Shown: positions 33,759 through 59,428, counted from the first letter of the stretch. The stretch is DNA of 64,000 nt from Acidimicrobiales bacterium (GCA_965220035.1 CBDCPC010000002.1:1466151-1530150), one strand, 5' to 3'. A program made the numbers and translations. Notes: generated by a model from the letters alone, not told the origin.

Positions 33759-34978
33759 GTGGCGTTGTCGTAGACCGCCTTCTCGAAGTCGAGGAACCCG
33801 ACCACCGAAGTGGGGTCGGCGAAGGGGAAGATCTGGGTCGCCCAGAAGCCGCCCACTCCGTTGGCCCGGTCGATCCAGAAGTAGAGATTGGCGAGACCCG
33901 CCCATGCCAGCGCTCCCGCCGGCCGGCCGGTGGGAGCGTCCTCTTCGTTGATCATGAAGGTCAGCGCCCAAGTCTTCGGCATGCCCGGGAAGAACTCGGC
34001 GTCGTTGGACAGACGCGGGTTCGATATGGGAAGGACCGTCTTGGCCACCTCGGTGGCGCCGACGCCGGGCAGCTTCTTGACGAACATGCCTTTGGGCAGC
34101 TGGTTTCGCGCCGCCATGTCAACGGTCTCGGGCCTGAGGATCTGCTCGCCCCCGGCGCCGGCTCCGTCGTTGAGCCACATGCGGATGAACTTGGCGTAGT
34201 CCTCCGCCGTGCCGTAGAGGCCGTGGCCGGCCATGTGAATCTCGGGGTCGGGCGGCAGTTCCACGCCGGGCAGCGGAATCAGCGACCCGTCGGCGTCCTC
34301 GCGTGCGTGGATCGTGGCCAGGCGCTCACGCATCGTCGGAGTCATCGAGAAGGCGGTCGAATCCATTCCCAGCGGGCCCAGCACCCTCTCCTCGAGCACC
34401 TCGCCCAGCCGCTTGCCGGTGATGCCCTCCACCACCAGGCCGGCCCAGTCGATGTTGGAGCCGTACTCCCACCGCTCGCCGGGGTCGAAGAGCAGCGGCG
34501 TCTCGATGGAGGCGAAAGAGGCGTCCACCACCCACGGCTGTCCCTGCTCGTTGGCCAGCCTCGTATACGTCTCGTTGAAGAAGTCGTACGTGAGCCCGGC
34601 TGTATGGGTGAGTAGGTGGCGCGTCGTGATGTCGCTGCGGGGCGGGCGCAATCTGGGCGTTCCGTCGCCGTCGAAGCCCTCGAGCACACCGAGCCCGCCG
34701 ATCCTCGGTACGTACTCCTTCGCCGGGGCGTCCAGGTCCAGGTCGCCCTGCTCAACCAGCTGCAGGCACGCTGTGCCAGCGATGGCCTTGGTCGTCGAGA
34801 AGATCGCACACACCGTGTCGGTCGTGAAGGGATCTCCCCCAAGAACGCGCTCGCCCCGGGCGCCGGCATAGATGACGCCGTCCCGATCGGTGGCGACCGC
34901 AGCGACGCCGGGAACGCGCGGCGATCCCGAAACAACACCGTCCAATACCGCATCCGCGGCTGAAATGAGATCACCCAT
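33755..34978 (-). CDS. serine hydrolase, beta-lactamase/esterase (class C-like) family
   Basis: ATG 34978 preceded by GAGAGGAGAG. S-x-x-[20 protein letters not shown]. Confidence 0.8.
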
Positions 34979-35237
34979 CGCGTCTCTCCTCTCTGCGATA
35001 GCCAGGTCAACTCCGTTACCACGTGCTCCTGCCCGTCCGATCGGCCAGCACCCGTGCGCACGCACCGTGTAGCAGCGGCGACAGCCGCACCATACCTTCC
35101 AACCATGCTCCACGTGAACTCGTTGGTTCCCGGCTTCGTCCTGTTATTGACGTATTCACGTCGAGAGATGACGTATTCACGTCGCATTGGTAGGGTGGAC
35201 TCGGTGGCGGTGACGCGGATGCTGGGAGGGTCAGGCT

Positions 35238-35852: not shown

Positions 35853-36878
35853 ATGGTTAGTTCCAAGGGGTCAGTGGTCGTAGGCGAGCAGGCTGCGGGC
35901 GGGGCTTGCTCTTGGGGTGGTTTGGTTGTGCCAGATGGCGGCGGTGAGGGCGAGGAGTCGTTGCAGGATGCGCGCGGCGACGCCGGCGGGGGTGCGCCCG
36001 CCGTGGCGTTCGAGGCCGAGTTGGCCTTTGAGGGTCTGGAAGACCGATTCGATGATCTGGCGCAGCGGCCGCAGGAACCGCTGGTGGGGCCGGGCGAGTT
36101 CTGTTTTCGTCGTCGGGCGGATGAGTGCGATGCCCGCGTCGGCGAGTTGCTGCTCGAAGGCGGCGCTGCGGTAGCCCTTGTCGGCGATGAGGGTCTGGCC
36201 CGGGCGGGCCAGGTCGCCGTGGGCGATCATGTCCAAACAGATGTCGCGTTCGTCGGCTTTCGCGTCGGCGAGCGCGAAGGCGATCGGCAGACCCGACGGG
36301 GTGGCGAGCAGGTGCAGGCGCAGCCCCCAGAAGTAGCGGGAGTGGCTGGCGCTGTACCCGTAGGAGGCCCATCCGGCCAGGTCAGAGCGCCGTTGGGTCT
36401 CGCGGCTGCGCCCGCACTCGACCGGCGTGGAGTCGACGAGCCACACGTCGTCGTGGTACGACGGGCAGTCCCGCGCCAACGCCCCGAGCACGTGTTGCAT
36501 CAGTTGACCGCTGCGACGCAGGCGCTTGTGGTAACCCGACCGCTGGGGCAGATACGGGAACCACGACCGCAGGTGCTCTTCGGCGTAACGCACGAAGCGG
36601 GCCTCGGAGTCGAATCTCGACAAGACCTGCACCACCGCCAACGTGGCCAGTTCCGCGTCAGACAGCTTCGGGGCGAACCCCACCGCCGGCCGCGGCGGCG
36701 CCCACCCCGGATGCGCCACCAACAAATCATCAACCGTCACATAAAGTGCAGTCACGAGGGTGTCCAAATCCGGGTTCATGCCAAGGTCCTCCAGGATCGG
36801 GGGCAGTTCTCACCCCCAGATCTTGGACACCCTCAACCACCCAACGGTGGACCCCACCCCTTGGAACTACTCATCTAG
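35849..36878 (-). mobile_element. IS982-family insertion sequence, copy 3 (1030 bp, most divergent)
   Basis: Same IRs with CTAG at both ends. Inserted exactly between 35238..35852 and 36902..37450. Confidence 0.9.
35871..36779 (-). CDS. IS982-family transposase (copy 3)
   Basis: 302 aa starting MNPDLDTLVTALYVTVDDLLV. Confidence 0.9.
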   Translation of the reverse strand: MNPDLDTLVTALYVTVDDLLVAHPGWAPPRPAVGFAPKLSDAELATLAVVQVLSRFDSEARFVRYAEEHLRSWFPYLPQRSGYHKRLRRSGQLMQHVLGALARDCPSYHDDVWLVDSTPVECGRSRETQRRSDLAGWASYGYSASHSRYFWGLRLHLLATPSGLPIAFALADAKADERDICLDMIAHGDLARPGQTLIADKGYRSAAFEQQLADAGIALIRPTTKTELARPHQRFLRPLRQIIESVFQTLKGQLGLERHGGRTPAGVAARILQRLLALTAAIWHNQTTPRASPARSLLAYDH

Positions 36879-39022: not shown

Positions 39023-40156
39023 ATGCGCAGGGCGCTCGCGGTTGGGGTCGGGCTCGCGCTGTGGTGCGCTGCCTGTGCGGGCGCGAGCACTGTGACCGAG
39101 GCCGAGCCGGATGCTCAGACACCCAGCGGGCCGGATGCTGAGCCGCTGAGCGGGCCGCAGATGCGCAGGCTCCTGGCGGAGTTCGTGGACGAGGACCGGC
39201 AGAGCGTCGGCGTCGTGGCCGGCGTGACCAGTGCCGAGGGGCGCGTTGTCGTCGGATACGGACGCCTCAGCGAAGACGACCCGACCCGGCCCGATGGGGA
39301 CACTGTTTTTGAGATCGGCTCGATCACGAAGGTGTTCACGTCCACGCTGCTGGCCGACCTGGTGTCGCGAGAGGAGTTGGGGCTCGACACGCCGGTGCAG
39401 AGCCTGCTCGGCGATGAGGTGCAGATGCCCGCTCGCAACGGTGCCGAGATCACGCTGGGCCACTTGGCCACCCACAGCTCCGGGCTGCCCCGCCTGCCCG
39501 ACAACTTCGACCCGGAGGATCCGGCCAACCCTTACGCCGACTACACCGTCGAAGATCTCTACGCCTTCCTGTCTTCTCACGAGCTGGACCGCGACATCGG
39601 GGACACAGTCGAATACTCGAATGTTGGCTACGGCCTGCTGGGCCACGCTCTCGCCCTGCGAGAGGGCACCGACTTCGAGACGCTCATCGTCGAGCGGATC
39701 CTCGAACCGCTGCAGATGCCCGACACGGCGGTCGAGCTGACGCCGGCTCTCCGCGAGCGCCTGGCCACCGGTCACGACGGGCGGCTCCAGCCAGCCGCCA
39801 ATTGGGACCTGCCGGTCCTCGCCGGCGCAGGAGCGCTTCGCTCCACCGTCAACGACCTTCTGACATTCCTCGAAGCGAATCTCCGCCTGCGCGAGTCGCC
39901 TCTACACCAGGCAATGGAACTCGCTCGCATGCCCCAACGGAGCGACCCAGTGCTGGGCATGGACATCGGGCTGGGATGGATAATCGCGAGGGAGGGAGAC
40001 CGCGAGTTCGTGTGGCACAACGGCGCAACCGGCGGCTATGCCTCGTTCATCGGCTTCGATGCCGAGGCGGGTGAAGGGATCGTCATCCTGTCGAACTCAC
40101 AGCTGAGCGTGGACAATCTGGCCTATCGCCTGTTCACTCGCGACTTCGACGGGTAA
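39023..40156 (+). CDS. secreted serine hydrolase, beta-lactamase (class C-like) family
   Basis: Signal/lipobox LALWCAACAG. S-x-x-K GSITKVF. Y-x-N YSNVGYGLLG. Confidence 0.85.
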   Translation: MRRALAVGVGLALWCAACAGASTVTEAEPDAQTPSGPDAEPLSGPQMRRLLAEFVDEDRQSVGVVAGVTSAEGRVVVGYGRLSEDDPTRPDGDTVFEIGSITKVFTSTLLADLVSREELGLDTPVQSLLGDEVQMPARNGAEITLGHLATHSSGLPRLPDNFDPEDPANPYADYTVEDLYAFLSSHELDRDIGDTVEYSNVGYGLLGHALALREGTDFETLIVERILEPLQMPDTAVELTPALRERLATGHDGRLQPAANWDLPVLAGAGALRSTVNDLLTFLEANLRLRESPLHQAMELARMPQRSDPVLGMDIGLGWIIAREGDREFVWHNGATGGYASFIGFDAEAGEGIVILSNSQLSVDNLAYRLFTRDFDG

Positions 40157-40582
40157 GTCGGCTGACACAAGGAGCGACGGTGGGCCGCGATCTCAGCTCG
40201 GTGATGGAACAGCTCGAGGCCGCGGAGGCGGCCCGGCGAATGGGAGGCGTCCACCGGATGGTTCGTGGTCACCTGCACCGCCGAGGATCCCGACGTCTGG
40301 TCGATCGCTGAGTTGCGCGGCCTGCTGGAGCAGATCGAGGCCGAGATCAAGCAAGCTGGCCGCGCGAAACACAGGGCACACCAACCGTGGGGATGCGGTG
40401 TTGGCGGCGTGCGCGCAACTCGCGCTGGGGCCTCGCCGACTGCACCGACCGCACCGGCGCCCCCGCCAAACTCGCCGTCATCACCGCCACCGGCTACTCC
40501 TACGACCGCCCCGACGGCATAGCCGTCCTACCCATCACCAGCCTCGGGCCCTAGCAACGAACGCGGCATGCTTCGGGCCGGA

Positions 40583-41590
40583 TCAGCGGGATTCCCGAGA
40601 TTTCGCCACCAGGGCCTCGCTGGCTTTCCACAACCTGGCCCCGTTGTCCGGATCCGATGCATCTGGCGAAACCCGCTTCCGATGCATCATGTGCAAGTAC
40701 ATCCCGGTGGAGCTCCCCGCTTCCTGCGCACAGCAGAGGTAGACGACCGGTCCGATCGCTTCCTCCGGTGACTGGAAGAATCGCCGTAACCACGCGTTGA
40801 CGATCGGTTTCAGCAGTGCCGGCGCGTCCTTGACAATGTTCGTGGCGACCCCTCCCGGGCACAGCGCGTGCACCGCGACATCGACCCTGTCGCTGGGGTT
40901 CAGGCGGCGGGAAAGCTCGGTCGCGAACGTGCACAGGGCCAGCTTGCTCCCGGCGTACTGCCGCATGCTCCCGGTCATCCCGTGCTCCGTGTACGCACCG
41001 AAGCGATCGAAATCGATGGCCGGAGCGGAGCGGTGCGAATCCGATGCGACGAACACGATCCGCGGGGCCTCGTCGGCCCGCCTCGACGGACGGATGACAC
41101 CATCGGCCAGCCATCGGTCGATCATCACCCGCTGTGCCAGGAAGTTGACCGCGAACATGACCTCGTACCCCTGCGGGGTCCTCCTCGACCGGCGCGACAT
41201 GGCGCCGGCGTTCATGAGCGCGATGTCGATGCGGATGCCGCGCCGGTGCAGGTCGTCGCAGCAGCGATGCACGGAGCGAAGATCCGAGAGGTCCACCTCG
41301 ACCAGCTCCACGGCCCCGGACCCGGAAAGCCGCCTGATCTCGCCGCAGGTTTCGGCATGACCTGGCCGGCAGGCCAGGATCATATTCCCGCCGCGCCTTG
41401 CGAGTTCGATCGCAGCAGCTCTCCCCAATCCACTGTTGGCCCCGGTGACCAGGCAAGTCCTGCCGTCGATCCGCACGTCATCCGGGAGCGGGCTGACGGC
41501 GGGGATCTTGGGATTCCTGAGGTCGCGGAGCGCCGTGATCATGGCGTTGACCACGTTGCCGCCACCGATCCTCGGTGTTTCCGGTGTCAT
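40583..41590 (-). CDS. SDR-family oxidoreductase
   Basis: ATG 41590 inside ORF 40583..41665. TGANSGLGRAAA. Catalytic YAGSKLA. Confidence 0.85.
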   Translation of the reverse strand: MTPETPRIGGGNVVNAMITALRDLRNPKIPAVSPLPDDVRIDGRTCLVTGANSGLGRAAAIELARRGGNMILACRPGHAETCGEIRRLSGSGAVELVEVDLSDLRSVHRCCDDLHRRGIRIDIALMNAGAMSRRSRRTPQGYEVMFAVNFLAQRVMIDRWLADGVIRPSRRADEAPRIVFVASDSHRSAPAIDFDRFGAYTEHGMTGSMRQYAGSKLALCTFATELSRRLNPSDRVDVAVHALCPGGVATNIVKDAPALLKPIVNAWLRRFFQSPEEAIGPVVYLCCAQEAGSSTGMYLHMMHRKRVSPDASDPDNGARLWKASEALVAKSRESR

Positions 41591-41645
41591 GGCAATGGGT
41601 GCCTCCGGGACCGTCCGCCGGCTCTCGCTCAATCGCCGGCGGGGC

Positions 41646-42887
41646 CTATTCGAACGGGATCGCATGTTTCTCCCGGTAGGAGGAGAAGGCCTCGTCCACG
41701 ATTTGCTCGCTCAACCCGAAATCGCCCAGCCGGTAGGTGTGTCTTCCGAAACGGTTCTGCGGGTTCGCTTTCATGCATCGTGTGGCTTCGCGCTCGGCCT
41801 CGTCGTCGAAAGTAATCCCCGCCTGCTTGCAGATCCCCCGGAACTCGGCGATCGGATCTCTCGTCAGGTCGTAGTACGACACGTCGATGAATCGACCGGC
41901 TTCCGCATCCACCCGGGTCTGCATCGTCCGTTGAACCATCCTGCGGGTCTTCCTGCACCAGTGTTTCCCAATCTCGTCCGGATCGACGTCATCGCTGAGC
42001 ATGCCGCGGGCGTGGGCCACCATGCTGCAGAACGAGGCGAGCGCTACTCGCGGATCGCGGTGGGTCTGCACGATCGTGGCGTCGGGGAACACCATCCCGA
42101 ACGTGTCGAGGTGTTCCATGTGGTGCGGGGTCTTGAGCACCCAGGTACGGCCGGGGCGCTGCCAGCAGAGCACCTTCAGAACCCGGTGGAAGTATTCGTA
42201 GGTCCACGCATGATCCTGACCCTCCAGCCAGCGGGAATAGCCCGGCACGTGCATCATGGCCTCCGCCGACTGGGTCATGAACGTCAGATCCAGCAGCAGG
42301 ACGTCCTCTTCCGGCTCCCCGTGATCGATCGGATGGATCGCCATGAACTCGGGCGCCAGATAGGAAATGGCCCTCTTGGCAAGACCTGCACGCCGTTCGC
42401 GGGCTCTCTGCCCGCGTTCGGACGGATCGACAGGCGATACCGGGTTCAGCGCTTCCGCGCCGGAGATGCCCCGAATCTCCGGATGGGAATGCAGCAGGCG
42501 CTGCAGCAGGGTGGTGCCGGTGCGCTGCAATCCGGTGATCAGAACGATGCTGCCGAGGTCGATGTCATGGATCTCGGGATGCCTTCTGAGCAGCTCCTGG
42601 ATCCGCAACCGGTTGACCAGCGCACCGCCGAGCCGCGACTTCTGTATCTGCTGGCCCATTGCGGTCAGTCGGGCTTCGTCATTGATCGACTCGACGAGCA
42701 CTTGCAGGGCACGGAGGTGTCCGTCCTCGCCGAAGTCCACCAGCCCGGTCTTCCGCTGGGCATAGCCGACGAGTGAATCGACTTCCAGGCGACCGGAAAG
42801 TCCGACACTCCGGCCCGCCCTCCCGATCCGGTTGAAGATCCTGATGGGGAGAGGGCGATACGGGTTCTCATAGTCCGTGGAAGTCAC
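41646..42887 (-). CDS. sulfotransferase (Sulfotransfer_3-like, PAPS-dependent)
   Basis: GTG 42887 overlaps the upstream stop (GTGA). 5'-PSB loop ITGLQRTGTTLLQRLL. VQTHRDPRVALASF. Confidence 0.8.
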   Translation of the reverse strand: MTSTDYENPYRPLPIRIFNRIGRAGRSVGLSGRLEVDSLVGYAQRKTGLVDFGEDGHLRALQVLVESINDEARLTAMGQQIQKSRLGGALVNRLRIQELLRRHPEIHDIDLGSIVLITGLQRTGTTLLQRLLHSHPEIRGISGAEALNPVSPVDPSERGQRARERRAGLAKRAISYLAPEFMAIHPIDHGEPEEDVLLLDLTFMTQSAEAMMHVPGYSRWLEGQDHAWTYEYFHRVLKVLCWQRPGRTWVLKTPHHMEHLDTFGMVFPDATIVQTHRDPRVALASFCSMVAHARGMLSDDVDPDEIGKHWCRKTRRMVQRTMQTRVDAEAGRFIDVSYYDLTRDPIAEFRGICKQAGITFDDEAEREATRCMKANPQNRFGRHTYRLGDFGLSEQIVDEAFSSYREKHAIPFE

Positions 42888-44110
42888 GAACCACTCCCAG
42901 CTGTGGGAGCGATCTTCCCCCCGGCCGGTTCCGGCAGGCCGGGTAACTTGATCAGTCGGGTCCGGGGTTGCGGGTGCTCCTTCGCCCGCACCCACCGGAA
43001 ACACATCGTGCCGGACGTGTGGCCTGCGGTCTCGATCCAGTTGGGAAGGCCGGGGTTCTCGTGCGCCACGATCAGACGCACAGAGCCGTCCTCGGAGTAG
43101 TGGGCAAGATGCTTGTTGGTGTGGATCCTGAAGTGCCGATAGTCCAGCGATTCCATCCAGTAGTTGTTCAACTGGAAGTTCCAGTGCTCGCATTCCGGAG
43201 GTACGACTTCGATCAGCAGGGCTTCGTCGGGGGCGATTGCCCAGTGGCTGTGGTAGTAGGTGATGTTCGGGTCCCCCCCGGCGGCCAGCGACACCTGCGG
43301 ATCGAACATCGGCAGTTCATTGCTGTGCTTCTTGAAGTCGCGTGCCCACTTGGCGAACAGCAGTGGCGCGCCGGCGACCAGCGCCCCCGCGTTCTGCAAC
43401 CCCTCGTCCAGCGCCCTTGCCGTCAGCTGAGAGGCGCGGCCCCCGTCACCGGCGCAGTCGATGCGCTCGATGGTCAGCTCCGCGGGGGATTCCGCGTTCC
43501 GGTCACCGAAGGTCTGGCGGACCACCAACGTCCCGGTCTCCGGCCTCATGGGGAGCCAGTTGCGGCCCTGGGGATTGCTGCTCGCCACGAGCTCGAAGCA
43601 ACCGTCCTCGTCCATTTCGATCTGATCGGATTCGATGTGCCCGGTGGGGGGAAGGCCGCCACCCTGACCGTAGTTGCCGGACTGGGTTCCGAAGCTCAAG
43701 TAGGCGACGGTGTTGCGCCGCCCGGTGATCCTGTAGTCGTAAGTCCCGTCCAAGGCGGCCGTCAGATAGAAATTGTCGGGATTGTCGGCGCCCAACTTGG
43801 TGGTCTCGTCGACAACGCGATGCAGCACGGGCGCCTTGGGGTCGGCGTGTTCGATGAACGCCATCAGGCCGGCACGGGCGAGACGGCTCAAATACCGGTA
43901 TCCCTCTGCCTGGTTGAACGGATCCCGCGGAGCCCCGGGGAAACTCAACGCAGCTCCTGCCGCTCTCAGAGAATCACAGAACTCGTTCCAGGACTCGCCG
44001 CTCACGACGCGCCGGACGGCCACATCGTCCGGCGTCTTGCCACGAAGCCTCCAGACAACAAGGGAGATCCTTCGAAACAGGACGAGGAGACCGAGTGCGA
44101 ACTTCAGCAT
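42884..44110 (-). CDS. membrane-anchored hypothetical protein, DUF1214-like (label from memory)
   Basis: 408 aa. N-terminal TM MLKFALGLLVLF. GADNPDNFYL, NWLPM, FQLNNYWMESLDY. Translationally coupled to the sulfotransferase. Confidence 0.7.
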   Translation of the reverse strand: MLKFALGLLVLFRRISLVVWRLRGKTPDDVAVRRVVSGESWNEFCDSLRAAGAALSFPGAPRDPFNQAEGYRYLSRLARAGLMAFIEHADPKAPVLHRVVDETTKLGADNPDNFYLTAALDGTYDYRITGRRNTVAYLSFGTQSGNYGQGGGLPPTGHIESDQIEMDEDGCFELVASSNPQGRNWLPMRPETGTLVVRQTFGDRNAESPAELTIERIDCAGDGGRASQLTARALDEGLQNAGALVAGAPLLFAKWARDFKKHSNELPMFDPQVSLAAGGDPNITYYHSHWAIAPDEALLIEVVPPECEHWNFQLNNYWMESLDYRHFRIHTNKHLAHYSEDGSVRLIVAHENPGLPNWIETAGHTSGTMCFRWVRAKEHPQPRTRLIKLPGLPEPAGGKIAPTAGSGS

Positions 44111-44142
44111 GGCGTACCTCTTCGGTCGATCTGCTCAACAAT

Positions 44143-44262
44143 CTAGTGTCCTGAGCGATTAGTTCGTTTGGTATTCGGAGGATTGCTGCAGCGAGCTGGC
44201 CTGCGCAAATGCGAATAGCGGGGCCATCGAAACGCCAGCGAACTTCCGACTCGGGGCACTAG
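44143..44262 (-). mobile_element. 120-bp MITE-like element, copy B (inverted relative to copy A)
   Basis: Reverse complement equals 14091..14210 except one position in the TIR (CTAGTGCCCCGAG vs CTAGTGTCCCGAG). Lies between the DUF1214-like start and the sat/cysC stop. Confidence 0.8.
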
Positions 44263-44300
44263 GAGTGTGCTGAGCAATCCATCCGCAGCGCCGGTCCAGC

Positions 44301-44335
44301 CGCTGGACAATGGATTCCGGCCTCCGCCGGAATGA
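44301..44335 (+). repeat. 35-bp hairpin repeat (REP-like), copy 1
   Basis: GCTGGACAATGGATTCCGGCCTCCGCCGGAATGAC. 8-bp stem ATTCCGGC/GCCGGAAT with loop CTCC. 34/35 identical to 59394..59428. Confidence 0.7.
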
Positions 44336-44414
44336 CGCTGAAGGTCAGCCGCAGCAATACTCAGCGGTCTCCCAGGTGGACCCCACGAGTGGGTGAGCGG
44401 GGTTGTGGGGCCGC

Positions 44415-46172
44415 TCACGCGCCGTTGGACGGGGCGAGCTCGCCTGCCGGGGATCGTACGAACCGCTCCTCGGTGAGGTGGTTCAGGATCAGGCGGGCGT
44501 TGTCCCGCGCAGAGTTTCCGACGGTATCCAGCGTGATCTCCGGGTTCTCCGGGGCTTCGTACGGATCGTCGATGCCCGTGAAGCCGGTGATCTCACCGCG
44601 GCGCGCCTTGGCGTACATGCCTTTGGAGTCGCGCTGTTCGCAGACGTCGAGAGGCGTGTCCACGAACACCTCGATGAAGCGCTCGGAGCCGACCATGGCG
44701 CGCACCTCGTTCCGCGTGGCGCTGTATGGGCTCACGGCCGCGCAGATCGCCAATCCGCCGTGGCGAACTATCTCGGAGGCAACGAATCCGATCCTGGCGA
44801 TGTTGGTGTCCCTGTCCTCCTTGGAGAAGCCGAGCCCCTTGGACAGGTGCGTTCGCACAACGTCCCCGTCCAGCACGGTCACCTGCCGTCCATGCTCCAT
44901 GAGCAGGTCGGTGAGCGCCTCGGCCGTCGTGGACTTTCCCGAACCACTGAGGCCGGTGAACCAGACGCACACGCCCTGCCGATGCTTCGGCGGATAGCTC
45001 TCGGCCAAAATGTCGGCGACCTCCGGCCTGGTGAACCAAGTGGGCAGAGTTCGCCCCTGGCCCAGGTACTCCTCGCGTACCTGCGTCCCGGAGATCGAGG
45101 CCGTCCTTGCGCCTTCGGGAAGTGCCGTGGCCTCTTCGTATCTGTCGTCGTCGGGGACGTACACCATCTCGTGGAAGGTGACGGCCTTGACTCCGGTCTC
45201 ATCGCTGAACCGGTCGACGACCTCCTGGGCGTCGTACGGGCCGTAGAACGGGTTGCCTGCCGAGTCGACCCCGGGGCTGGCGTGGTCACGGCCGACGATC
45301 AAGTGGTTGGCGCCGTAGTTGCGTCGGATGATGGCGTGCCAGAGCGCCTCCCTGGGTCCGGCAAGCCTCATCGCCAGCGGCAACAGCGACAGGAGCACCC
45401 TGTCGGGCTCGTAGTAGTGCCGGGTCAGCGCCTCATAGGTGCGGACGCGGGTGTAGTGGTCGACGTCCCCGGGCTTGGTGAGCCCCACCACCGGGTGAAG
45501 CAGGAGGACGCCGTCCACGCTCCCGGCGGCCCTCTTGGTGAGTTCCTCGTGGGCCCTGTGCAGGGGGTTCCGGGTCTGGAAGGCCACGACGTTCGGGTGG
45601 CCGTAGCCGGCCAGGCTGGCGCGCGTCCCGGTTGGGGTCTTCCTCAAGGCGGTGAAGTCGTGGTGCGGCGGAACCCGCAGCACCCGCAGCGGCCCGGATA
45701 TGTTGACCCTTCCCCAGCGGTGCATCTCCGACACGAGGGGGTGCCGCACGTCGCGGGTGCCGAAGACACGGTCAGCGGTCTCCTGCAGGTCCCACTCGTA
45801 CGCCTCCTGCACTGTCATGACAGCCAGCAGCTCGTTGCGAGAATCGCGTAGCGCTACGTCACCGTCGAGCTGGATGGACGACGGATCGTCCACCGGCAAT
45901 GTCACCGGTATGGGGAAGAGCGTGCCGTCGCCGAGCCGCATCTCGCCGACCGTTCCCCGGTGGTCGTGCTCCCCCATGAACCGGTCGAGGGGCGAGAACG
46001 CTCCCGTGGCGAGGAGCTCGAGGTCGCAGGTCGCGCGGTCGGACAGCTGGATGCTGGGAAGGCCGCCGGCGCGCGCCTTCAGATCGGCGGCCTGGTCCTG
46101 CGGGACGATCAGGTCGACCAACTCTCCACCGTATGGCGAAATGAGTGTGGACTTCTCGCTCAGGGTTGCCAT
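44415..46172 (-). CDS. bifunctional sulfate adenylyltransferase (Sat-type) / adenylylsulfate kinase (PAPS synthase)
   Basis: 585 aa; QTRNPLHRAHEEL, LIVGRDHASPG, APS-kinase P-loop WFTGLSGSGKST, LDGDVVR. Confidence 0.9.
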   Translation of the reverse strand: MATLSEKSTLISPYGGELVDLIVPQDQAADLKARAGGLPSIQLSDRATCDLELLATGAFSPLDRFMGEHDHRGTVGEMRLGDGTLFPIPVTLPVDDPSSIQLDGDVALRDSRNELLAVMTVQEAYEWDLQETADRVFGTRDVRHPLVSEMHRWGRVNISGPLRVLRVPPHHDFTALRKTPTGTRASLAGYGHPNVVAFQTRNPLHRAHEELTKRAAGSVDGVLLLHPVVGLTKPGDVDHYTRVRTYEALTRHYYEPDRVLLSLLPLAMRLAGPREALWHAIIRRNYGANHLIVGRDHASPGVDSAGNPFYGPYDAQEVVDRFSDETGVKAVTFHEMVYVPDDDRYEEATALPEGARTASISGTQVREEYLGQGRTLPTWFTRPEVADILAESYPPKHRQGVCVWFTGLSGSGKSTTAEALTDLLMEHGRQVTVLDGDVVRTHLSKGLGFSKEDRDTNIARIGFVASEIVRHGGLAICAAVSPYSATRNEVRAMVGSERFIEVFVDTPLDVCEQRDSKGMYAKARRGEITGFTGIDDPYEAPENPEITLDTVGNSARDNARLILNHLTEERFVRSPAGELAPSNGA

Positions 46173-46253
46173 TCTTGCGTCCTCCTGTCCCGAGCCACGA
46201 ATTCTCGCTCAGATCTAGGTTGGGTCCGATGCAAGGAGATGCTGATGTCCTAG

Positions 46254-46340
46254 CCGGCCAAGCGAAGTCCTGAGCGGAAGCTGGAGGTGGTGGTGTCGGT
46301 GCTGCGCGGGGAGGTGTCGGCCCCGGAGGCGGCATCTGCG
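46254..46340 (+). pseudogene. remnant of an IS3-type OrfA N-terminus
   Basis: PAKRSPERKLEVVVSVLRGEVSAPEAA resembles the HTH start of IS3/IS481-type OrfA proteins. It decays immediately afterwards. Confidence 0.3.
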
Positions 46341-46422
46341 GGGCGACAGCATCGATGTGTGGGGCGCTGCACCACCCCAGCGGACCTATCGCTGCTCAGA
46401 GACATCGCAGTAATGTGGAGCT

Positions 46423-47037
46423 GTGGGGGCGTCGTCGCTGGCGATCGCGCTAGCACTCGTGCACGGGCTGCTGGCCGTCTTCGTCATAGTCGGCGCTCCA
46501 CTGGCCGCACGCAGGCCCCGGCTGATGACGTGGTACCTGAGCGTGCTGGTTCCGATCGCTGTGGTGAACCTCCGCGGGCTGCCGTGCCCGCTGACGGTTT
46601 GGGAGAAGCACTTCTGGCGCCTGGCGGGTGAGACACCGTACCGAGGAGGCTTCATCTCCCAGTATTTCGTGGAGCCGTTCTACGCTCCCGGTCTTCGCCC
46701 CGGCGACGAGACCGCTCTGCTGGTCGTCGTGGTGGTCTGGTGCCTTTTGTGGCTGCTGTACGCGGCCGTCTCGCGCCTGCGGCTGCGGAGCGGGTCAATC
46801 CCACAGTCGCACGCTCGCCCCACACTGGACACGAACTCAGAATCACTACAGGCCCACTGCCCGTCGGGGCACTTCGCCGCCAACGCCGCCTGGCTGACCT
46901 GCGCCACCGTGGCCCACAACCTCTACCGCTGGCTGCACGACCACACCAGCGGTCGCCGCTGTGACCCGAGCACGCCGCGCACCCAACAGCCTCTCCTGAC
47001 CCCCACCACCGGCCCACACCCACCAACCCGCCGGTGA
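46423..47037 (+). CDS. DUF2784 membrane protein; 3' third is read-through into an IS1380 remnant
   Basis: GTG start. GLPCPLTVWEKHFWRLAG signature. From about 46838 the ORF encodes PSGHFAANAAWLTCATVAHNLYRWL, which is IS1380 transposase sequence. Confidence 0.65.
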   Translation: MGASSLAIALALVHGLLAVFVIVGAPLAARRPRLMTWYLSVLVPIAVVNLRGLPCPLTVWEKHFWRLAGETPYRGGFISQYFVEPFYAPGLRPGDETALLVVVVVWCLLWLLYAAVSRLRLRSGSIPQSHARPTLDTNSESLQAHCPSGHFAANAAWLTCATVAHNLYRWLHDHTSGRRCDPSTPRTQQPLLTPTTGPHPPTRR

Positions 47038-47045
47038 ATCCAGGC
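46838..47045 (+). mobile_element. IS1380 remnant (internally deleted 3' end with terminal repeat)
   Basis: Transposase C-terminal motif plus terminal CGGTGAATCCAGGC at 47031..47045, matching the CGGTGGATTCAGGC ends of the full copies. Confidence 0.7.
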
Positions 47046-47205
47046 AAACTGACCACTAAGCTCAAGTTTCGTCTGGTTTCGCTTGCCAGGAGCGCCTGCT
47101 CCTGAGCGCCCGTGGGCAGGCTCGAAGGTCTCCCATTGCCCGCCGGCCAACGTCCGCACCCGCCATCCAGACCTTGCAGCAGCCCAAAGCGAGGTCAGCA
47201 CCACA

Positions 47206-50200
47206 ATGCGCGAACTGTTCTTTACCGTCTCGGGCGCGCTGGCAGCATTCGCGCTCATCATTCTTTCCGGCGTCCCGTTGTCCCACGCGGCGCACGCTCA
47301 GTCGTCGCCGTTGGTGGCGCTCGCCCTCTCCTCCGACTCCGCGGAGGAGGGCACGGCCATCACCGTGACAATGTCCTTCAGCGGCCTGGAGCACGACGCC
47401 GACACCTCCGACAAGGACTACATGTTCCGGGCCGACGTGGTGGATGCCGACGGGTGCGAGGACCGGGCGGGCGGCTACGGCCTGGGCGTGGACCGCTACA
47501 TGCACAAGGTGGACGAGGACTCCGAAGTCCGCACCGGGAGAATATCCACCCGCTGTCCGGCGGGGGATTACACCGTTGTAGCCATCATAGCGTCGGCGGC
47601 GAACGTGGAACTCGCGTCGGCCACCGCGAGCTTCACGATTACAGCGCCTTCCGCGCCGCCAACGAATGAGCCGTGTTCAGGAGGCGGCTATGACCCAACG
47701 CCGACGGCGGTAGATGTCGAGGCCGTTCCAATCGTGGTTGACTCCACGGCTGAAGAATACTTCGTGCTCTACGTGCGGCGCGATATGGACGGCAGGGTGG
47801 TGGAGGTCCCGGTCTCGGTGACACGGGGCGCGGCGGGCACGACCACGCTCGCCGAGAACGTGGAGGCGCTTCCCAAGGAGCGTTACCTGGTGAAGAAGTT
47901 CCTTGTCGCCGACCCGGCCGACGTCGACGGCGACTGCATCGACGACATCACCGAACTCGGAGACCCGGCGGGCATGAACCCGGTGAACCCCGCCGCCGCC
48001 ATCGAACTCGGCAAGGGCGCCGTGGCCATTCCCGATCACGCAACATTCGACACGCTCTCCATCTCCGGGTTGATCAAGTTCGTTCTGCTCGACACGGACA
48101 CCGACAGACCGAGTGTCTACTTCATGAACACCATGAATTACACTAGCCATGCTGACTTCCTGGCTGCTATAGGCATCGAGCGGAGGCTGCCCGGGTTGAT
48201 CACCGGTCAACTGGGCTACTACCCGAAACTCTCTGCCCCTGACGGCAGTCTGGGACTCTACACGTACCAGTTCACGTACGCACGACCCTTCGGCATTGCG
48301 GATTCTTCCTTGACGGCGCTCGCCGCCAGCATGCCGCTGCTCGAGGATAACTTGGCCTATTACATGAGAAACCAAGACCTTCCGGCTTACCAGCACGAGT
48401 TAACGCTCTACGAGGCATCCCGAATCAACCTCGTGTTCGACGAAGACATCATCCCCAAAAGTGGTTTCAGCTCGTTGAACGAAGCGGAAGGGTACGGCTT
48501 TCTGCGGATCATGGACCTGGAGGAGAGTCCCAACCCCCGAGACGTGGTTATCTACGAAGCGCTGCCCAACGAGCTTCCCCGCGTTGCCGGCATCATCACC
48601 ACTGTGCCCCAAACGCCGCTTTCGCATGTGAACCTTCGCGCCGTCCAGGACGGCGTCCCCAACGCTTATATTGGAGACGACTACAGGAGCCACATCAACT
48701 CTTTCGTCGGCAAGTACGTCCGCTACAAAGTGATGAAGTACAGCTACTCCATCCGCGTAGCCACCCGCGCGGAAGTTGACGCCCACTTCGCGTCTTCCCG
48801 GCCCGGCGTAGAGCAGACGCCGCAGCGGGACCTCACGGTCACTGAGATCACACGGCTCGACGAGGTCGGCTTCGACGACTGGAAGGCCTTCGGCGTCAAG
48901 GCGGCCAACGTGGCCGTGCTGGGGACGTTCGATTTTCCGGAGGGGACAGTCCCCGACGGGTTCGCGGTCCCGTTCTATTTCTACGACGAGTTCATGAAGC
49001 ACAACGACTTCTACACCCGCATCCAAACCATGCTGGCCGACGCCGATTTCCGGACGGACCTCGACGTGCAGGAATCCGAACTCAAGAAACTGCGCAAAGC
49101 CATCAAGAAGGGTGAGACGCCCGGATGGATTATCGACGCCCTGACCGAGATGAATGAGTTGTTCCCCGAGGGGACCAACCGTCGCTACCGGTCCAGCACC
49201 AACAACGAGGACCTCCCCGGTTTCAACGGCGCGGGACTGTACGACTCCAAGACCCAGAAGCCCAAGGAGGATGAGGAGGACATCGCCAAATCCCTCAAAC
49301 AGGTGTACGCCAGCCTGTGGAACTTCCGCGCCTTCACCGAACGCGACTTCCATCGCATCGACCACCTGGCGGCCGCGATGGGGATCCTGGTCCATCCCAA
49401 CTACTCCGACGAGCTGGCCAACGGCGTAGCCGTCTCCTTCAACCCCTTGTACCGAGGCAGCAGAGACGGGTGGTACTACGTCAACACGCAGATCGGCGAG
49501 GACCTGGTCACCAATCCCGACGCGCTCTCGGTGCCGGAGGAGGTCCTGTTGAATCCGGCCGGCGGATACTTCGTCCTTCGCACCTCCAACCAAATGCCGC
49601 CGGGACAGCTTCTCATGAGCAACGGCCAACTGGACCAGTTGCGCAGACACCTGGCCGTGATTCACAAGAAGTTCGCAATGCTGTACGGCATCGGGCCGGG
49701 TGAAGACTTCGCCATAGAAATCGAGTTCAAGATCACCAGCGACAATGTCCTGGCGATCAAGCAGGCCCGCCCCTGGGTCTTCGGCCCCGCCCCGGCGTCC
49801 GATGGCGCAGGAACTGTGACCCTGTCGGCGGTGCAGCCCCAGGTTGACACGCCCCTGACGGCCACCCTGACCGACCCCGACGGCGGCGTCTCCGGCGTCG
49901 CCTGGTCGTGGCATAGTTCTCAAGACAGGACCACTTGGACCGTCATCGGCGGGGCCGCGGCAGCCTCCTACACGCCGGTCGAGGCCGACATGGGCAGATA
50001 CCTGCGAGCCACCGCCTCCTACACTGACGGGAAAGGCTCCGGCAAGAGCGCAGAGGGCGTATCGGACGACGCGGTGCTGGCGGCGGCGCAAACGAACAAC
50101 TCGCCGGCGTTCCCCTCCACGGAGACCGGGAATCGTACTGTCAGTGAGGACACGGCAACGGGCCAGAACATTGGGTCCCCGGTCGTAGCCACGGACGAGG

Positions 50201-51363
50201 ACAACGACGCCCTGACCTACTTCCTCGGTGGAACTGACGCCAGGTTCTTCGACATTGTGGACACGTCCGGCCAATTGCAGACCAAGGCCGCCCTGGACTA
50301 CGAGGCCAAGTCCACTTACACGGTGACCGTAACAGCAAGGGACCCGTTGGGCCTCGCCGACGAGATCACCGTGACCATCAACGTCATTGACGTGGAGGAG
50401 CCGTCCGTGGCCATCACCCTCTCCCCCTCCGGCTCCGTGGAGCCTGGCAACGAGATCGCCGTCACGATGAGCTTCAGCGGCCTGGAGTCTGACTCCGACA
50501 CCGCCACCACCGATTACATCTTCCGGGCCGACGTGGTGGATGTCGACCAGTGCGAGGACCCAGCAGGCAGCTACGGCCTGGGCGTCGACCGCTACATGCA
50601 CAAGGTGGACGAGGACCCGGAGATACGCACCGGGACGATTTCCGCCGACTGTCCGGCGGGAGACTACACCCTGCGGGCCGGCGTCTCCGACTCCAGCGGC
50701 TCGGAACTGGCCTCAGCCAGCGTGGCCTTCTCGGTCACAGAACCGGAGACGCCGCCATTCGGCGACGCCACGCTGAGCGGGCTGGCGCTGAGCGGCATGG
50801 ACTTCGGAACCTTCTCCCCGGTCACCACCGAGTACACCGTCAGCGTTGCAAACGACGTAACGGAGACCACGGTGACGCCCACGGTGAACGGCGACGGGGC
50901 CAGCTTCCTAATCAAGCTGGACGGCGTGGAAGATGGCGACGGGACCGTCTCCCTGGCCCTGGGCAGCAACGTCATCGCCGTCGAGGTCACCGCCGAGGAT
51001 GGCAACACGACGCAGACCTACACCGTCACCGTGACCAGAGCCGCACCGCCGTCTACCGACGCTACCTTGAGCAGCCTGGAACTGAGCGGCATAACCTTCG
51101 ACTTCGACCCGGCCACCTACAGCTACGACGTGAGCGTCGGCAACGGAGTCACGGAGACCTTGATAACGGCGGAGACTAACGATGCGAGCGCGAGCTACCA
51201 AGTAGTGCTGGTGCTCTCCGAGGGATATAAAGACGGCACGGTGACCCTGGCCGAGGGCGCCAACATCATCTACCTGGCAGTGACGGCGGAGGACGGGGAG
51301 ACGACCGCGAGTTACACCGTCACCGTGACCAGAGCCGCACCGTCCTCCACCGGTGCCGCGTAA
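47206..51363 (+). CDS. large secreted multidomain protein: 2 x novel Cys-containing domain, PPDK_N-type PEP/pyruvate-binding (ATP-grasp-like) domain, cadherin repeat, 2 x cadherin-like beta-sandwich
   Basis: ATG 47206 gives a signal peptide (FALIILSGVPLSHAAHA). PPDK_N block FGVKAANVAVL...RRYRSSTNNEDLPGFNGAGLYDS...MGILVHPNY...FAIEIEFKITSDNVLAIKQARPW. Cadherin VVATDEDNDALTYFL...LDYEAKSTYTVTVTARD. C-terminal ATLSGLALSG.../ATLSSLELSG... repeats. Confidence 0.85.
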   Translation: MRELFFTVSGALAAFALIILSGVPLSHAAHAQSSPLVALALSSDSAEEGTAITVTMSFSGLEHDADTSDKDYMFRADVVDADGCEDRAGGYGLGVDRYMHKVDEDSEVRTGRISTRCPAGDYTVVAIIASAANVELASATASFTITAPSAPPTNEPCSGGGYDPTPTAVDVEAVPIVVDSTAEEYFVLYVRRDMDGRVVEVPVSVTRGAAGTTTLAENVEALPKERYLVKKFLVADPADVDGDCIDDITELGDPAGMNPVNPAAAIELGKGAVAIPDHATFDTLSISGLIKFVLLDTDTDRPSVYFMNTMNYTSHADFLAAIGIERRLPGLITGQLGYYPKLSAPDGSLGLYTYQFTYARPFGIADSSLTALAASMPLLEDNLAYYMRNQDLPAYQHELTLYEASRINLVFDEDIIPKSGFSSLNEAEGYGFLRIMDLEESPNPRDVVIYEALPNELPRVAGIITTVPQTPLSHVNLRAVQDGVPNAYIGDDYRSHINSFVGKYVRYKVMKYSYSIRVATRAEVDAHFASSRPGVEQTPQRDLTVTEITRLDEVGFDDWKAFGVKAANVAVLGTFDFPEGTVPDGFAVPFYFYDEFMKHNDFYTRIQTMLADADFRTDLDVQESELKKLRKAIKKGETPGWIIDALTEMNELFPEGTNRRYRSSTNNEDLPGFNGAGLYDSKTQKPKEDEEDIAKSLKQVYASLWNFRAFTERDFHRIDHLAAAMGILVHPNYSDELANGVAVSFNPLYRGSRDGWYYVNTQIGEDLVTNPDALSVPEEVLLNPAGGYFVLRTSNQMPPGQLLMSNGQLDQLRRHLAVIHKKFAMLYGIGPGEDFAIEIEFKITSDNVLAIKQARPWVFGPAPASDGAGTVTLSAVQPQVDTPLTATLTDPDGGVSGVAWSWHSSQDRTTWTVIGGAAAASYTPVEADMGRYLRATASYTDGKGSGKSAEGVSDDAVLAAAQTNNSPAFPSTETGNRTVSEDTATGQNIGSPVVATDEDNDALTYFLGGTDARFFDIVDTSGQLQTKAALDYEAKSTYTVTVTARDPLGLADEITVTINVIDVEEPSVAITLSPSGSVEPGNEIAVTMSFSGLESDSDTATTDYIFRADVVDVDQCEDPAGSYGLGVDRYMHKVDEDPEIRTGTISADCPAGDYTLRAGVSDSSGSELASASVAFSVTEPETPPFGDATLSGLALSGMDFGTFSPVTTEYTVSVANDVTETTVTPTVNGDGASFLIKLDGVEDGDGTVSLALGSNVIAVEVTAEDGNTTQTYTVTVTRAAPPSTDATLSSLELSGITFDFDPATYSYDVSVGNGVTETLITAETNDASASYQVVLVLSEGYKDGTVTLAEGANIIYLAVTAEDGETTASYTVTVTRAAPSSTGAA
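50407..50735 (+). repeat. intragenic duplicated domain (pairs with 47314..47638)
   Basis: AVTMSFSGLESDSDTATTDYIFRADVVDVDQCEDPAGSYGLGVDRYMHKVDEDPEIRTGTISADCPAGDYT versus ITVTMSFSGLEHDADTSDKDYMFRADVVDADGCEDRAGGYGLGVDRYMHKVDEDSEVRTGRISTRCPAGDYT. Confidence 0.85.
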
Positions 51364-51782: not shown

Positions 51783-52640
51783 GTGATCAACCATCCTCTG
51801 GCGGGGACGCCGTTCGGGACCGCCCTGTACGTGTGCATCGGCATCGCTGCGTTCTGCTGGGTGATGTCGCTGGTGACGAGGGAGTGTTCCTGGGTGGACC
51901 GAGTGTGGTCAATCGCCCCGCCGGTCTACTGCCTCATCGTTGCGGCCGACCTGGACTTCCGGTCCGCACGCGTCAACATCATGACGGTGCTGGTGCTCAT
52001 GTGGTCGGTGCGTTTGACGTTCAACTTCGCCCTGAAGGGCGGGTATTGGGTCGGTGGCGAGGACTACCGGTGGGCCCATCTCCGGGCACAACTCAGCCCG
52101 CTGCAATTCCAGCTGGTCAACGTGACCTTCGTTTCTCCCGGCCAGATGGCCATCATCTGGTTGTTCACATCACCCATTCATCAGGCATGGGAGCATTCCG
52201 AGCAACCGCTGGGATGGCTGGACTACCTCGCGATCGTGCTGTTCCTGGTGTTCCTCGCCTTCGAGAGCATCGCCGATGCGCAGATGTGGCGATTCCAGCA
52301 GAACAAGAAGCGGCAGATCAACGCGGGCCACGACGTGAGTCAACCATTCATGAACAAGGGTCTCTTCAGATTCAGCCGTCATCCCAACTACTTCTGCGAA
52401 ATGGCGATCTGGGTGACCTTCTACCTCTTCGCCATAGCGGCTTCGTCCCGGGTCTGGCACTGGACGGGCCTCGGCTTTGTGCTCCTGATCCTGCTCTTCC
52501 AACCCTCTGTACGACTCACGGAGAAGATCTCGAGCGAGAAGTACCCCACCTACAGCAGCTACCAGGCTGCTGTACCAAGGTTCATTCCGAATCCTTTCCG
52601 CACCAGGCGTGCGGAGCAGAGTCACACCGGCAACAGGTGA
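51783..52640 (+). CDS. DUF1295 membrane protein (steroid 5-alpha-reductase/ICMT-like fold)
   Basis: GTG start, multi-TM, NKGLFRFSRHPNYFCEM. Confidence 0.8.
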   Translation: MINHPLAGTPFGTALYVCIGIAAFCWVMSLVTRECSWVDRVWSIAPPVYCLIVAADLDFRSARVNIMTVLVLMWSVRLTFNFALKGGYWVGGEDYRWAHLRAQLSPLQFQLVNVTFVSPGQMAIIWLFTSPIHQAWEHSEQPLGWLDYLAIVLFLVFLAFESIADAQMWRFQQNKKRQINAGHDVSQPFMNKGLFRFSRHPNYFCEMAIWVTFYLFAIAASSRVWHWTGLGFVLLILLFQPSVRLTEKISSEKYPTYSSYQAAVPRFIPNPFRTRRAEQSHTGNR

Positions 52641-52800: not shown

Positions 52801-52906
52801 GGTCGTTTCGCCATCAACGCCCAGCAGCCGGAGTCGAGGGATCGGGCCTTCGTGGTCCCCTTCGATCCGGCTGCTCGGCGTTGATGGCAAACAGTGCCCG
52901 ATCCAG
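52801..52906. repeat. 106-nt imperfect palindrome (about 40-bp arms with one bulge)
   Basis: GCACTGTT[agggtcgtttc]GCCATCAACGCCCAGCAGCCGGAGTCGAGGG - 17-nt loop - CCCTTCGATCCGGCTGCTCGGCGTTGATGGC[a]AACAGTGC. Intergenic between 51783..52640 and 53143..56916. Confidence 0.75.
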
Positions 52907-53142
52907 TCGGCCGAAGGGGGCCGCCTGTACGGCCGCCCGACGGGTGCTCCGCACGTCCGCCGAGCGCACCGGATCCAGGAATCGCCGCCGGCCGGTGGGC
53001 TGTCGAGGAACCTCCGCAGCGCTGCAATCAGGTTGCCGGGATAGGCGAGCGCGGCACCGTGATGCGAATCGAGGATGCGCCCGACCATCAGGCAGGATGC
53101 CGGCGCGTCAGGCGCGGGTCGCCGCCCCCATATCCTTTCGCC

Positions 53143-59393: not shown

Positions 59394-59428
59394 GCTGCAC
59401 AATGGATTCCGGCCTCCGCCGGAATGAC
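59394..59428 (+). repeat. 35-bp hairpin repeat (REP-like), copy 2
   Basis: GCTGCACAATGGATTCCGGCCTCCGCCGGAATGAC. Lies 39 nt after the 57883..59355 stop and 76 nt before the UGSC gene start. Confidence 0.7.

Follow-up and report, generated by a model that had tools for sequence, protein, structure and literature searches.

A cross-phylum sulfotransferase cassette with a DUF1214-like partner and recurrent PAPS-synthesis genes

We analysed a stretch of 64,000 nucleotides from an Acidimicrobiales bacterium (GCA_965220035.1, CBDCPC010000002.1:1466151-1530150), here called the window, and concentrated on a cluster of four genes at positions 40583-46172. Three of these genes, encoding a DUF1214-like protein, a sulfotransferase and a short-chain dehydrogenase/reductase (SDR), form a triad that is kept together across phyla as a cassette. 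The fourth encodes a bifunctional sulfate adenylyltransferase / adenosine 5'-phosphosulfate (APS) kinase, Sat/CysC. We propose that this module carries out the sulfation of a hydrophobic alcohol, with 3'-phosphoadenosine 5'-phosphosulfate (PAPS) as the sulfate donor, and give this reading a probability of roughly two in three. Our leading guess for the acceptor is a sterol- or terpenoid-like alcohol, or another alcohol of lipid type.

Each of the enzyme families was already known, and PAPS genes had been described beside a lipid sulfotransferase in Bacteroides (PMC9417993). The new elements are the cross-phylum three-gene cassette built around an uncharacterised DUF1214-like protein, its distant equivalence to the stf1 operon of Mycobacterium tuberculosis, an anchored subfamily with an RDH-type SDR that is dominant in probable sponge-symbiont genomes, and the repeated capture of PAPS synthases by the cassette. 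Bacterial sulfated lipids are few yet influential, e.g., the sulfolipids and sulfomenaquinone of M. tuberculosis and the cholesterol sulfate of Bacteroides. Our results place Stf1-type enzymes in a compact three-gene module with a DUF1214-like partner, which is scarcely mentioned in the literature that we searched.

The four genes are intact, lie on the minus strand and have a high G+C content at third codon positions. Along this strand they follow each other in the order Sat/CysC, DUF1214-like, sulfotransferase, SDR. The features of the locus are:

44415-46172, minus strand: Sat-CysC, bifunctional sulfate adenylyltransferase / APS kinase, 585 residues (NF004040, Pfam)
44147-44375, no strand assigned: insertion of 229 nt in the spacer between the Sat/CysC and DUF1214-like genes, resembling a repetitive extragenic palindrome or miniature inverted-repeat transposable element (REP/MITE-like; comparison with loci L002-L005)
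42884-44110, minus strand: DUF1214-like protein of the 6ANS/Rv3531c family, 408 residues (PDB 6ANS, AlphaFold2 and Foldseek)
44045-44110, minus strand: N-terminal hydrophobic/amphipathic helix of the DUF1214-like protein, codons 1-22, MLKFALGLLVLFRRISLVVWRL (helix prediction, hydropathy)
41646-42887, minus strand: PAPS-dependent sulfotransferase (Sulfotransfer_3, Stf1/Stf9 clade) with a GTG start, 413 residues (PF13469, 2ZQ5)
42884-42887, minus strand: GTGA start/stop overlap of the DUF1214-like and sulfotransferase genes (direct sequence reading)
40583-41590, minus strand: SDR of PRK06197 type, 335 residues (PF00106)

A first-pass annotation, made from the sequence alone, had described four minus-strand genes, the GTGA overlap and a gap of 55 nt between the sulfotransferase and SDR genes. 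All four open reading frames (ORFs) were found where it had placed them, and direct reading of the letters confirmed both junctions. The overlap reads ...GGT TCG TGA / GTG ACT TCC..., with GGGAG six bases 5' of the sulfotransferase GTG. The SDR ATG at 41590 lies 55 nt past the sulfotransferase stop and is preceded, at about 11 nt, by GGAGG; ENA has the gene start at an ATG further upstream (41665), whereas homology in 70 other loci begins at ATG 41590. Consensus scans of the locus for promoters and terminators gave signals at chance level, and an Rfam scan of 39500-47500 gave no match at E ≤1. We infer co-transcription of the cluster from sequence features only: the 4-nt overlap, the 55-nt gap and the lack of terminator signals above chance.

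The cassette in other genomes and its PAPS genes

Carriers were sought among one genome per GTDB species with a 13-sequence alignment as the query, which gave at least 595 of them. The best 80 of these carrier loci were fetched with 10-kb flanks and compared with the window proteins by tblastn. About 76 of the 80 kept the order DUF1214-like, sulfotransferase, SDR with all three genes on one strand, and the exceptions were contigs that end early and Gordonia, where the SDR is on the opposite strand. Because order and strand recur in this many independent genomes, the arrangement is far beyond chance. Carriers span at least ten phyla (Actinomycetota, Chloroflexota, Acidobacteriota, Dadabacteria, Bacteroidota/Rhodothermales, Gemmatimonadota, Gamma- and Alphaproteobacteria, Myxococcota, Binatia, Spirochaetales), and Enhygromyxa salina SWB007 is a cultured representative in Myxococcota.

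The triad is a self-contained cassette in differing neighbourhoods. When every ORF of at least 110 residues in 81 loci was clustered all against all, only the three triad genes and their shadow ORFs were present in more than 13 loci. None of the genes flanking the cluster in the window is shared by L002, the closest relative (93% identity). The first-pass annotation had suggested checking whether the four-gene arrangement is conserved. This held for the three-gene core, but Sat/CysC is adjacent in only seven of the 81 loci.

Compared with the window proteins, the DUF1214-like proteins of these loci were 58-93% identical, the sulfotransferases 40-86% and the SDRs 36-89%. A tree built by neighbour joining from the concatenated triad was mostly coherent by phylum, with Acidobacteriota in four separate places, and identity between phyla was 70-83%. 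The two observations together indicate transfer of the triad between phyla. Many carriers are apparently sponge symbionts, judging from taxon names, from one sponge genome note naming Porisulfidus and from the naming schemes of metagenome-assembled genomes (MAGs); metadata did not verify this. The unusually high identity across phyla in these probable symbionts makes the cassette a candidate symbiosis-associated trait spread by gene transfer.

We surveyed the immediate neighbours of the triad in the 81 loci. PAPS-synthesis genes adjoin it in 19 of them, on the same strand in 17, and they come in three non-equivalent forms. Sat/CysC accounts for the seven loci mentioned above, being upstream in L001-L005 (Acidimicrobiales, the lineage of the window) and downstream in L015 and L020 (Dehalococcoidia). 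Seven loci have CysD, CysN-CysC and CysC in the orientation of the triad (downstream in L007, L019, L025-L027 and L029, upstream in L077), and in L064 these genes lie on the opposite strand. A lone APS kinase (CysC) is found directly upstream in L040, L050 and L056 on the same strand, and in L078 on the opposite one. The occurrence of three different forms argues for several independent captures of a PAPS supply, and such independent recruitment is in turn good evidence, at the level of gene content, that the module consumes PAPS. The dedicated PAPS supply proposed by the first-pass annotation is thus upheld by repeated capture, which is stronger than one fixed four-gene order would have been. 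The four-gene order with an upstream Sat/CysC is itself lineage-specific: five Acidimicrobiales loci keep the four genes together with differing flanks.

A lipid-related gene recurs still more often. In 37 of the 81 loci a gene of the SRPBCC/Polyketide_cyc2 type (START-like, lipid-binding) is co-directional with the triad, usually as the next gene behind the SDR or behind an additional SDR. At least ten loci (L010, L028, L037, L038, L042, L044, L047, L050, L053 and L063; about 13500-14600) have this additional SDR after that of the triad, with 24-31% identity between the two, and an SRPBCC gene often comes next in turn.

An unrelated second sulfotransferase (Sulfotransfer_5, about 250 residues) is encoded directly upstream of the DUF1214-like gene in four loci, at about 9130-9960: L007, L025 and two more of Poriferisodalis type. 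With the downstream CysD, CysNC and CysC genes this makes a seven-gene sulfation operon.

More distant relatives show how far the association extends. In soluble DUF1214-like relatives of about 50% identity (L083-L085) the triad is kept, with a classical SDR. In a relative of about 36% identity (L086) the DUF1214-like and sulfotransferase genes adjoin an MlaFEDCB lipid-transport operon. In a Myxococcales MAG (L077, 6394-8698) a second, divergent pair of sulfotransferase and DUF1214-like genes, with 33% and 32% identity, adjoins the triad; therefore the pairing of the two has held even between paralogues. The neighbours of the triad in Gordonia encode a TetR regulator and two oxygenases of the MpaB/Lcp type.

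Soluble homologues of 43-45% identity were also observed on sphingomonad megaplasmids, in Novosphingobium sp. ES2-1 (plasmid p1, L089) and Sphingomonas paeninsulae (L090). Their neighbours include TonB receptors, SDRs, an extradiol dioxygenase and NTF2-like proteins; ES2-1 also has CysQ, a 3'-phosphoadenosine 5'-phosphate phosphatase, and S. paeninsulae a sulfotransferase and SDR pair 4 kb from the DUF1214-like homologue. The Gordonia and sphingomonad contexts are suggestive of lipid or aromatic catabolism and do not pin down the acceptor.

The encoded proteins

The sulfotransferase scored 162.2 bits with PF13469 (Sulfotransfer_3, cut-off 27). Its second-best solved relative is 2Z6V (E 5.6e-44), which we take to be Stf9 of Mycobacterium avium. 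The closest is 2ZQ5 (E 3.8e-52, residues 36-402), confirmed as M. tuberculosis Stf1 (PMC13449962). The earlier assignment to the PAPS-type sulfotransferases was therefore correct and can be narrowed to the Stf1/Stf9 clade. We aligned 16 sequences of 83% to 30% identity, M. tuberculosis Stf1 included, which was the check that the first-pass annotation had proposed for the PAPS-binding residues. R122 and T125 of the 5'-phosphosulfate-binding (5'-PSB) loop (G119-L-Q-R122-T-G-T125-T), the pair K252-x-P-x-H256, and R277 and S285 of the 3'-phosphate-binding (3'-PB) motif T-H-R277...S285 are all invariant. The same PAPS-site and catalytic residues are at least 97% conserved across 71 loci, the set to which the conservation values below also refer. 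By analogy with cytosolic sulfotransferases, the Arg and Ser would contact the 3'-phosphate and the Lys and His would be catalytic. Judging from these alignments, both the PAPS site and the catalytic Lys/His are intact.

The third-best PDB match was the CurM sulfotransferase 4GOX, weak and partial (E 0.003). Two other assignments were rejected: the match to NoeE reached 18.8 bits for a cut-off of 500 and covered the P-loop / 5'-PSB loop only, and the match to tyrosylprotein sulfotransferases (E 0.02-0.08) was restricted to the P-loop.

The SDR scored 68.9 bits with PF00106, and 130 bits with NF004846, which is under the cut-off of that profile. Conservation is at least 97% in its motifs T49-G50...G54-L-G56 (TGxxxGxG) and N127-A-G and at S183, Y212 and K216, and also at R75, which comes directly after the second strand. 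Because an Arg directly following this strand marks the coenzyme under the usual SDR rules, the enzyme probably uses NADP(H).

Sat/CysC scored 818.7 bits with the NCBIfam equivalog NF004040 (cut-off 669). It carries the Pfam domains PUA_2, ATP-sulfurylase (residues 175-391) and APS_kinase (399-549), and its translation has the motifs QTRNPLHRAH, GRDHAS and the P-loop GLSGSGKST. The equivalog score and the two catalytic domains with their motifs leave the bifunctional assignment of the first-pass annotation standing. By its domains and motifs, the protein is equipped to convert sulfate to PAPS with ATP. Beside it, the window has neither a cysH nor a sulfite reductase gene.

The spacer between Sat/CysC and the triad measures 304 nt in the window and 68-82 nt in L002-L004, which do not have the 229-nt insert (44147-44375). 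In L005 a different insert, with a related palindrome, occupies the same spacer site. The insert of the window carries a perfect 23-nt palindrome, CATTCCGGCGGAGGCCGGAATCC, at 44312-44334, with a second exact copy at 59404-59426; none would be expected by chance in the window. Each copy sits just past a gene end, and about 45 nt of surrounding sequence is common to both. The insert thus looks like a REP/MITE-type element, and it may keep the PAPS synthase and the triad from being transcribed together.

Among the three triad proteins, constraint is strongest on the DUF1214-like one, with 134 of its 408 positions conserved at 97% or more, against 74 positions in the sulfotransferase and 51 in the SDR. 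The polar residues R72, D112, Y126, R198, N332 and R372 are invariant over 44 diverse members, and H364 is also among the conserved polar positions. The invariant residues suggest a defined binding or catalytic site. Database searches returned 3,452 close relatives, the best 120 of which are all at least 77% identical; those with names come from MAGs of Acidimicrobiia, Chloroflexi, Acidobacteria, Bryobacterales and Gammaproteobacteria. In a library of 1.8 billion proteins the family makes up 3,700 clusters at 50% identity.

The whole protein scored 32.4 bits with PF06742 (DUF1214, cut-off 25), but the alignment covers residues 303-373 only and no single stretch passes alone. For a DUF1254 domain we found no Pfam match at E ≤0.01. 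In contrast, 6ANS, an uncharacterised protein of Burkholderia cenocepacia, matches over the full length (E 1e-117, 50% identity). We ran the structure prediction that the first-pass annotation had called for. The AlphaFold2 model built on a diverse alignment reached a mean predicted local distance difference test (pLDDT) of 93; a model from 30 close homologues (pLDDT 66) was discarded. Foldseek aligned the retained model with 6ANS at template modelling (TM) scores of 0.86/0.95, i.e., the two have the same fold. After 6ANS came only Vibrio DUF1254/DUF1214 proteins, at TM about 0.45. Further matches (Cry toxins, SIDT, cupins) were noise, with TM <0.2. The protein is better filed in the 6ANS/Rv3531c family than with the DUF1254-DUF1214 proteins. 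The first-pass annotation had given it no known function, and this stands in that Foldseek found no characterised relative; yet one homologue has a solved structure (6ANS) and another is encoded in M. tuberculosis (Rv3531c).

The protein had also been described as anchored by a transmembrane helix. A hydrophobic N-terminal helix (residues 2-22 of the segment 1-22) is indeed predicted, with a best 19-residue Kyte-Doolittle mean of 1.85, but it is not a clean transmembrane segment: R13 and R14 stand in its middle, and at 0.46 the hydrophobic moment is high. The helix is thus equally likely to be a monotopic or amphipathic anchor as to span the membrane. All 80 closest genomic homologues carry this helix, which soluble relatives such as 6ANS and Rv3531c lack.

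Known systems and proposed function

To compare the triad with the operon of Stf1, we rebuilt the Stf1 sequence from the PDB alignment and traced it through a cluster (P0424) to a contig (L082). This contig encodes, in order, a PPE gene, an ORF of 375 residues, an SDR of 260 residues, Stf1 and, further on, KshA. These correspond to Rv3532, Rv3531c, Rv3530c, Rv3529c ... Rv3526. Rv3531c is 29% identical to the DUF1214-like protein of the window over 330 residues (E 3e-38), and Rv3529c (Stf1) is 34% identical to its sulfotransferase (E 7e-61). As in the window, the DUF1214-like, SDR and sulfotransferase genes are co-directional and tightly packed. By these sequence comparisons, Rv3531c-Rv3530c-Rv3529c is a distant version of the same module.

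The two versions differ in several respects. The M. tuberculosis order is DUF1214-like, SDR, sulfotransferase, instead of DUF1214-like, sulfotransferase, SDR. Rv3531c has no N-terminal hydrophobic helix, and no PAPS synthase gene adjoins the operon. A KstR operator is located between Rv3531c and Rv3532, and the operon forms part of the cholesterol catabolic cluster, next to kshA (PMC1995591); neither feature was seen in the window. No TetR or steroid-catabolism gene was present among the window neighbours scanned with Pfam, where no search for a KstR operator was made. Rv3531c, Rv3530c and Rv3529c are all listed among cholesterol-associated genes, and Rv3531c also stands in a table column that we interpret as the set of Griffin et al., required for growth on cholesterol (PMC6429209). 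The substrate of Stf1 was still reported as unknown in 2026 (PMC13449962).

Other known systems resemble parts of the module. The cluster BT_0411-BT_0416 of Bacteroides thetaiotaomicron, in which PAPS genes and a sulfotransferase make cholesterol sulfate (PMC9417993), has its PAPS-biosynthesis genes directly beside a lipid sulfotransferase, as the window has Sat/CysC 304 nt upstream of the triad. It has separate CysD/N/C-type genes, however, and no DUF1214-like or SDR partner has been described; the likeness drawn here between BT_0416 and the window sulfotransferase is one of gene context. ErSULT of the gut bacterium Eubacterium ramulus has an Stf1-like structure and sulfonates hydroxy fatty acids (PMC13449962). 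It is thus an Stf1-like enzyme acting on a lipid alcohol, although no triad context has been reported, and the likeness drawn here is one of published structure and reaction. 6ANS has the fold and family of the DUF1214-like protein, but is soluble and has no N-terminal helix. The Vibrio proteins VPA0735/VPA0106 (PDB 2P3Y, 3VB9, 3U07) are distant structural relatives (Foldseek E 1e-9 to 1e-11), differing in their two-domain DUF1254+DUF1214 architecture, with TM about 0.45 and 10-12% identity, and are likewise uncharacterised.

The acceptor of M. tuberculosis Stf3 is a hydroxylated menaquinone, whose hydroxyl is supplied by a P450. Such a logic would parallel an SDR that makes a hydroxyl for a sulfotransferase. 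Stf3 is nevertheless another paralogue with a P450 and not an SDR as its partner and with no DUF1214-like protein. Its product is described as the sulfated lipid-type metabolite S881 (cited in PMC3141025).

A lead towards sterols in Enhygromyxa salina was downgraded, the neighbourhood of its triad showing no sterol genes. The acid-labile sterol conjugates of this organism have the polarity of free sterols, arguing against sulfates (PMC10202945).

In the mechanism that we propose, Sat/CysC would make PAPS from sulfate and ATP, the SDR would reduce a carbonyl to a hydroxyl with NADP(H), and the sulfotransferase would sulfate this hydroxyl. The DUF1214-like protein would be held at the membrane by its N-terminal helix and work with the sulfotransferase, either capturing and presenting the lipid substrate or acting on it enzymatically. 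The dedicated PAPS synthase would be a later addition upstream in this Acidimicrobiales lineage. The sulfate ester may be the end product, or an intermediate in the transformation of a lipid or sterol. A sulfated metabolite or lipid had already been the expectation of the first-pass annotation, and the intact sulfotransferase, the capture of PAPS genes and the SRPBCC partners support it.

Several points weigh against this proposal. A DUF1295 gene 6 kb from the cluster is the only sterol- or lipid-specific feature of the window. The role given to the DUF1214-like protein is conjecture, because its fold has no functionally characterised structural relative in the Foldseek results. In L087, L088 and L089, more distant members of its family have no sulfotransferase partner and are surrounded by genes of acyl-CoA or ring-cleavage catabolism (such neighbours being acyl-CoA ligase, ChsH2/thiolase/MaoC, CoA-transferase and ring-cleavage genes); hence its chemistry is probably not sulfate-specific. 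The SDR of M. tuberculosis (260 residues, classical) is not orthologous to that of the window, the match being a 32-residue cofactor loop at E 0.001, so the role of the SDR need not be the same across versions of the module. The 304-nt spacer with its inserted repeat may also make a single four-gene transcript doubtful.

Sulfate might instead be a leaving group. The DUF1214-like protein would then be an enzyme that eliminates or displaces it, leading to dehydration, deoxygenation or rearrangement of a sterol or lipid in the course of its transformation or catabolism. The strong constraint on this protein and its many conserved polar residues (R72, D112, Y126, R198, N332, H364, R372) are reminiscent of an active site, and its wider family occurs in catabolic contexts (ChsH2/thiolase/CoA-transferase, acyl-CoA ligases, extradiol dioxygenase). 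The CurM sulfotransferase, third among the PDB matches, activates a hydroxyl for decarboxylative elimination, but the likeness is partial and weak, as noted above. The M. tuberculosis operon belongs to the cholesterol catabolic regulon, with Rv3531c in the column read as the growth-on-cholesterol set (PMC6429209). Yet Foldseek found no lyase- or hydrolase-like fold for the DUF1214-like protein, its family offers no experimental precedent, and a dedicated PAPS synthase would be costly in energy for a bulk catabolic route. We regard this explanation as unlikely. We find it less plausible again that Sat/CysC merely serves ordinary assimilatory sulfate activation, with a meaningless adjacency and the three-gene core alone as a unit. 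The low number of loci with an adjacent Sat/CysC (7/81) and the 304-nt spacer with its mobile-looking hairpin insert would fit such a coincidence. It would not account for the three kinds of PAPS genes adjoining the triad in 19 of 81 loci, 17 of them on the same strand, nor for the five Acidimicrobiales loci that keep the four genes together despite differing flanks, and the window has no cysH or sulfite reductase gene beside Sat/CysC.

A polar macromolecule as the acceptor (a polysaccharide, the head group of a glycolipid, a Nod-factor-like oligosaccharide or a protein tyrosine), with the lipid-related neighbours being there by coincidence, seems very improbable. The weak matches to NoeE and tyrosylprotein sulfotransferases that might point to it span the 5'-PSB loop only, whereas the full-length relatives are Stf1 and Stf9. 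Large surface-type proteins with cadherin and CotH domains are encoded nearby, but even L002, the closest relative, does not share them. In the 81 loci the triad has no conserved neighbour for a glycosyltransferase or for polysaccharide export; the partners that recur are an SDR and a lipid-binding protein of the SRPBCC type.

Sulfation of a hydrophobic alcohol thus remains our preferred reading. A bolder version of it, which we hold to be doubtful, is that the triad is a sulfating system for sterols, or steroid-like terpenoids, that has spread horizontally among unrelated sponge symbionts living in sterol-rich tissue, with the DUF1214-like protein as its membrane-bound sterol-handling subunit. 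If true, bacteria and not the animal may make or remodel some of the sterol sulfates of sponges, and the same chemistry would give the M. tuberculosis Stf1 operon a substrate class. The cultivable carriers (Enhygromyxa salina, Gordonia sesuvii, mycobacteria) offer experimental handles on the function of Stf1 and of the DUF1214-like family.

Surroundings of the cluster

About 6 kb from the cluster, at 51783-52640, is a gene for a membrane protein of the DUF1295 family that weakly matches steroid 5-alpha-reductase. In a Terriglobia MAG (L008, 8090-8950) a copy 51% identical to it is located upstream of the triad at a distance of 1 kb, and DUF1295 genes were seen in two of the 81 loci in all. This neighbour is a weak hint of sterol or polyprenol chemistry.

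Two very large ORFs on the plus strand diverge from the cluster. The one at 47083-51363 (1426 residues) combines a PPDK_N ATP-binding domain with cadherin and cadherin-like domains, and in the one at 52894-56916 (1340 residues) a CotH kinase is joined to a lamin-tail domain and an M1 peptidase. These unusual fusions are possibly host-interaction proteins.

The sulfation cassette is at the edge of an island rich in insertion sequences (1000-36800), the left 37 kb of the window being dense in transposases. At least seven transposase or integrase ORFs were found there (1000-2697, 4205-5572, 7846-8841, 11113-12570, 17049-18431 of the IS110 type, 20237-21661 with an rve domain, and 35871-36779). 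The island also encodes a HipA toxin (22294-23745), a KAP nucleoside triphosphatase (15661-17040) and a DUF4143 ATPase (28376-29629). Two genes of the beta-lactamase family (serine hydrolases), at 33755-35143 and 39023-40156, flank the region of a transposase, a metallophosphoesterase and the cassette. Weak homologues of this family (26-31%) also occur near the triad in a few other loci.

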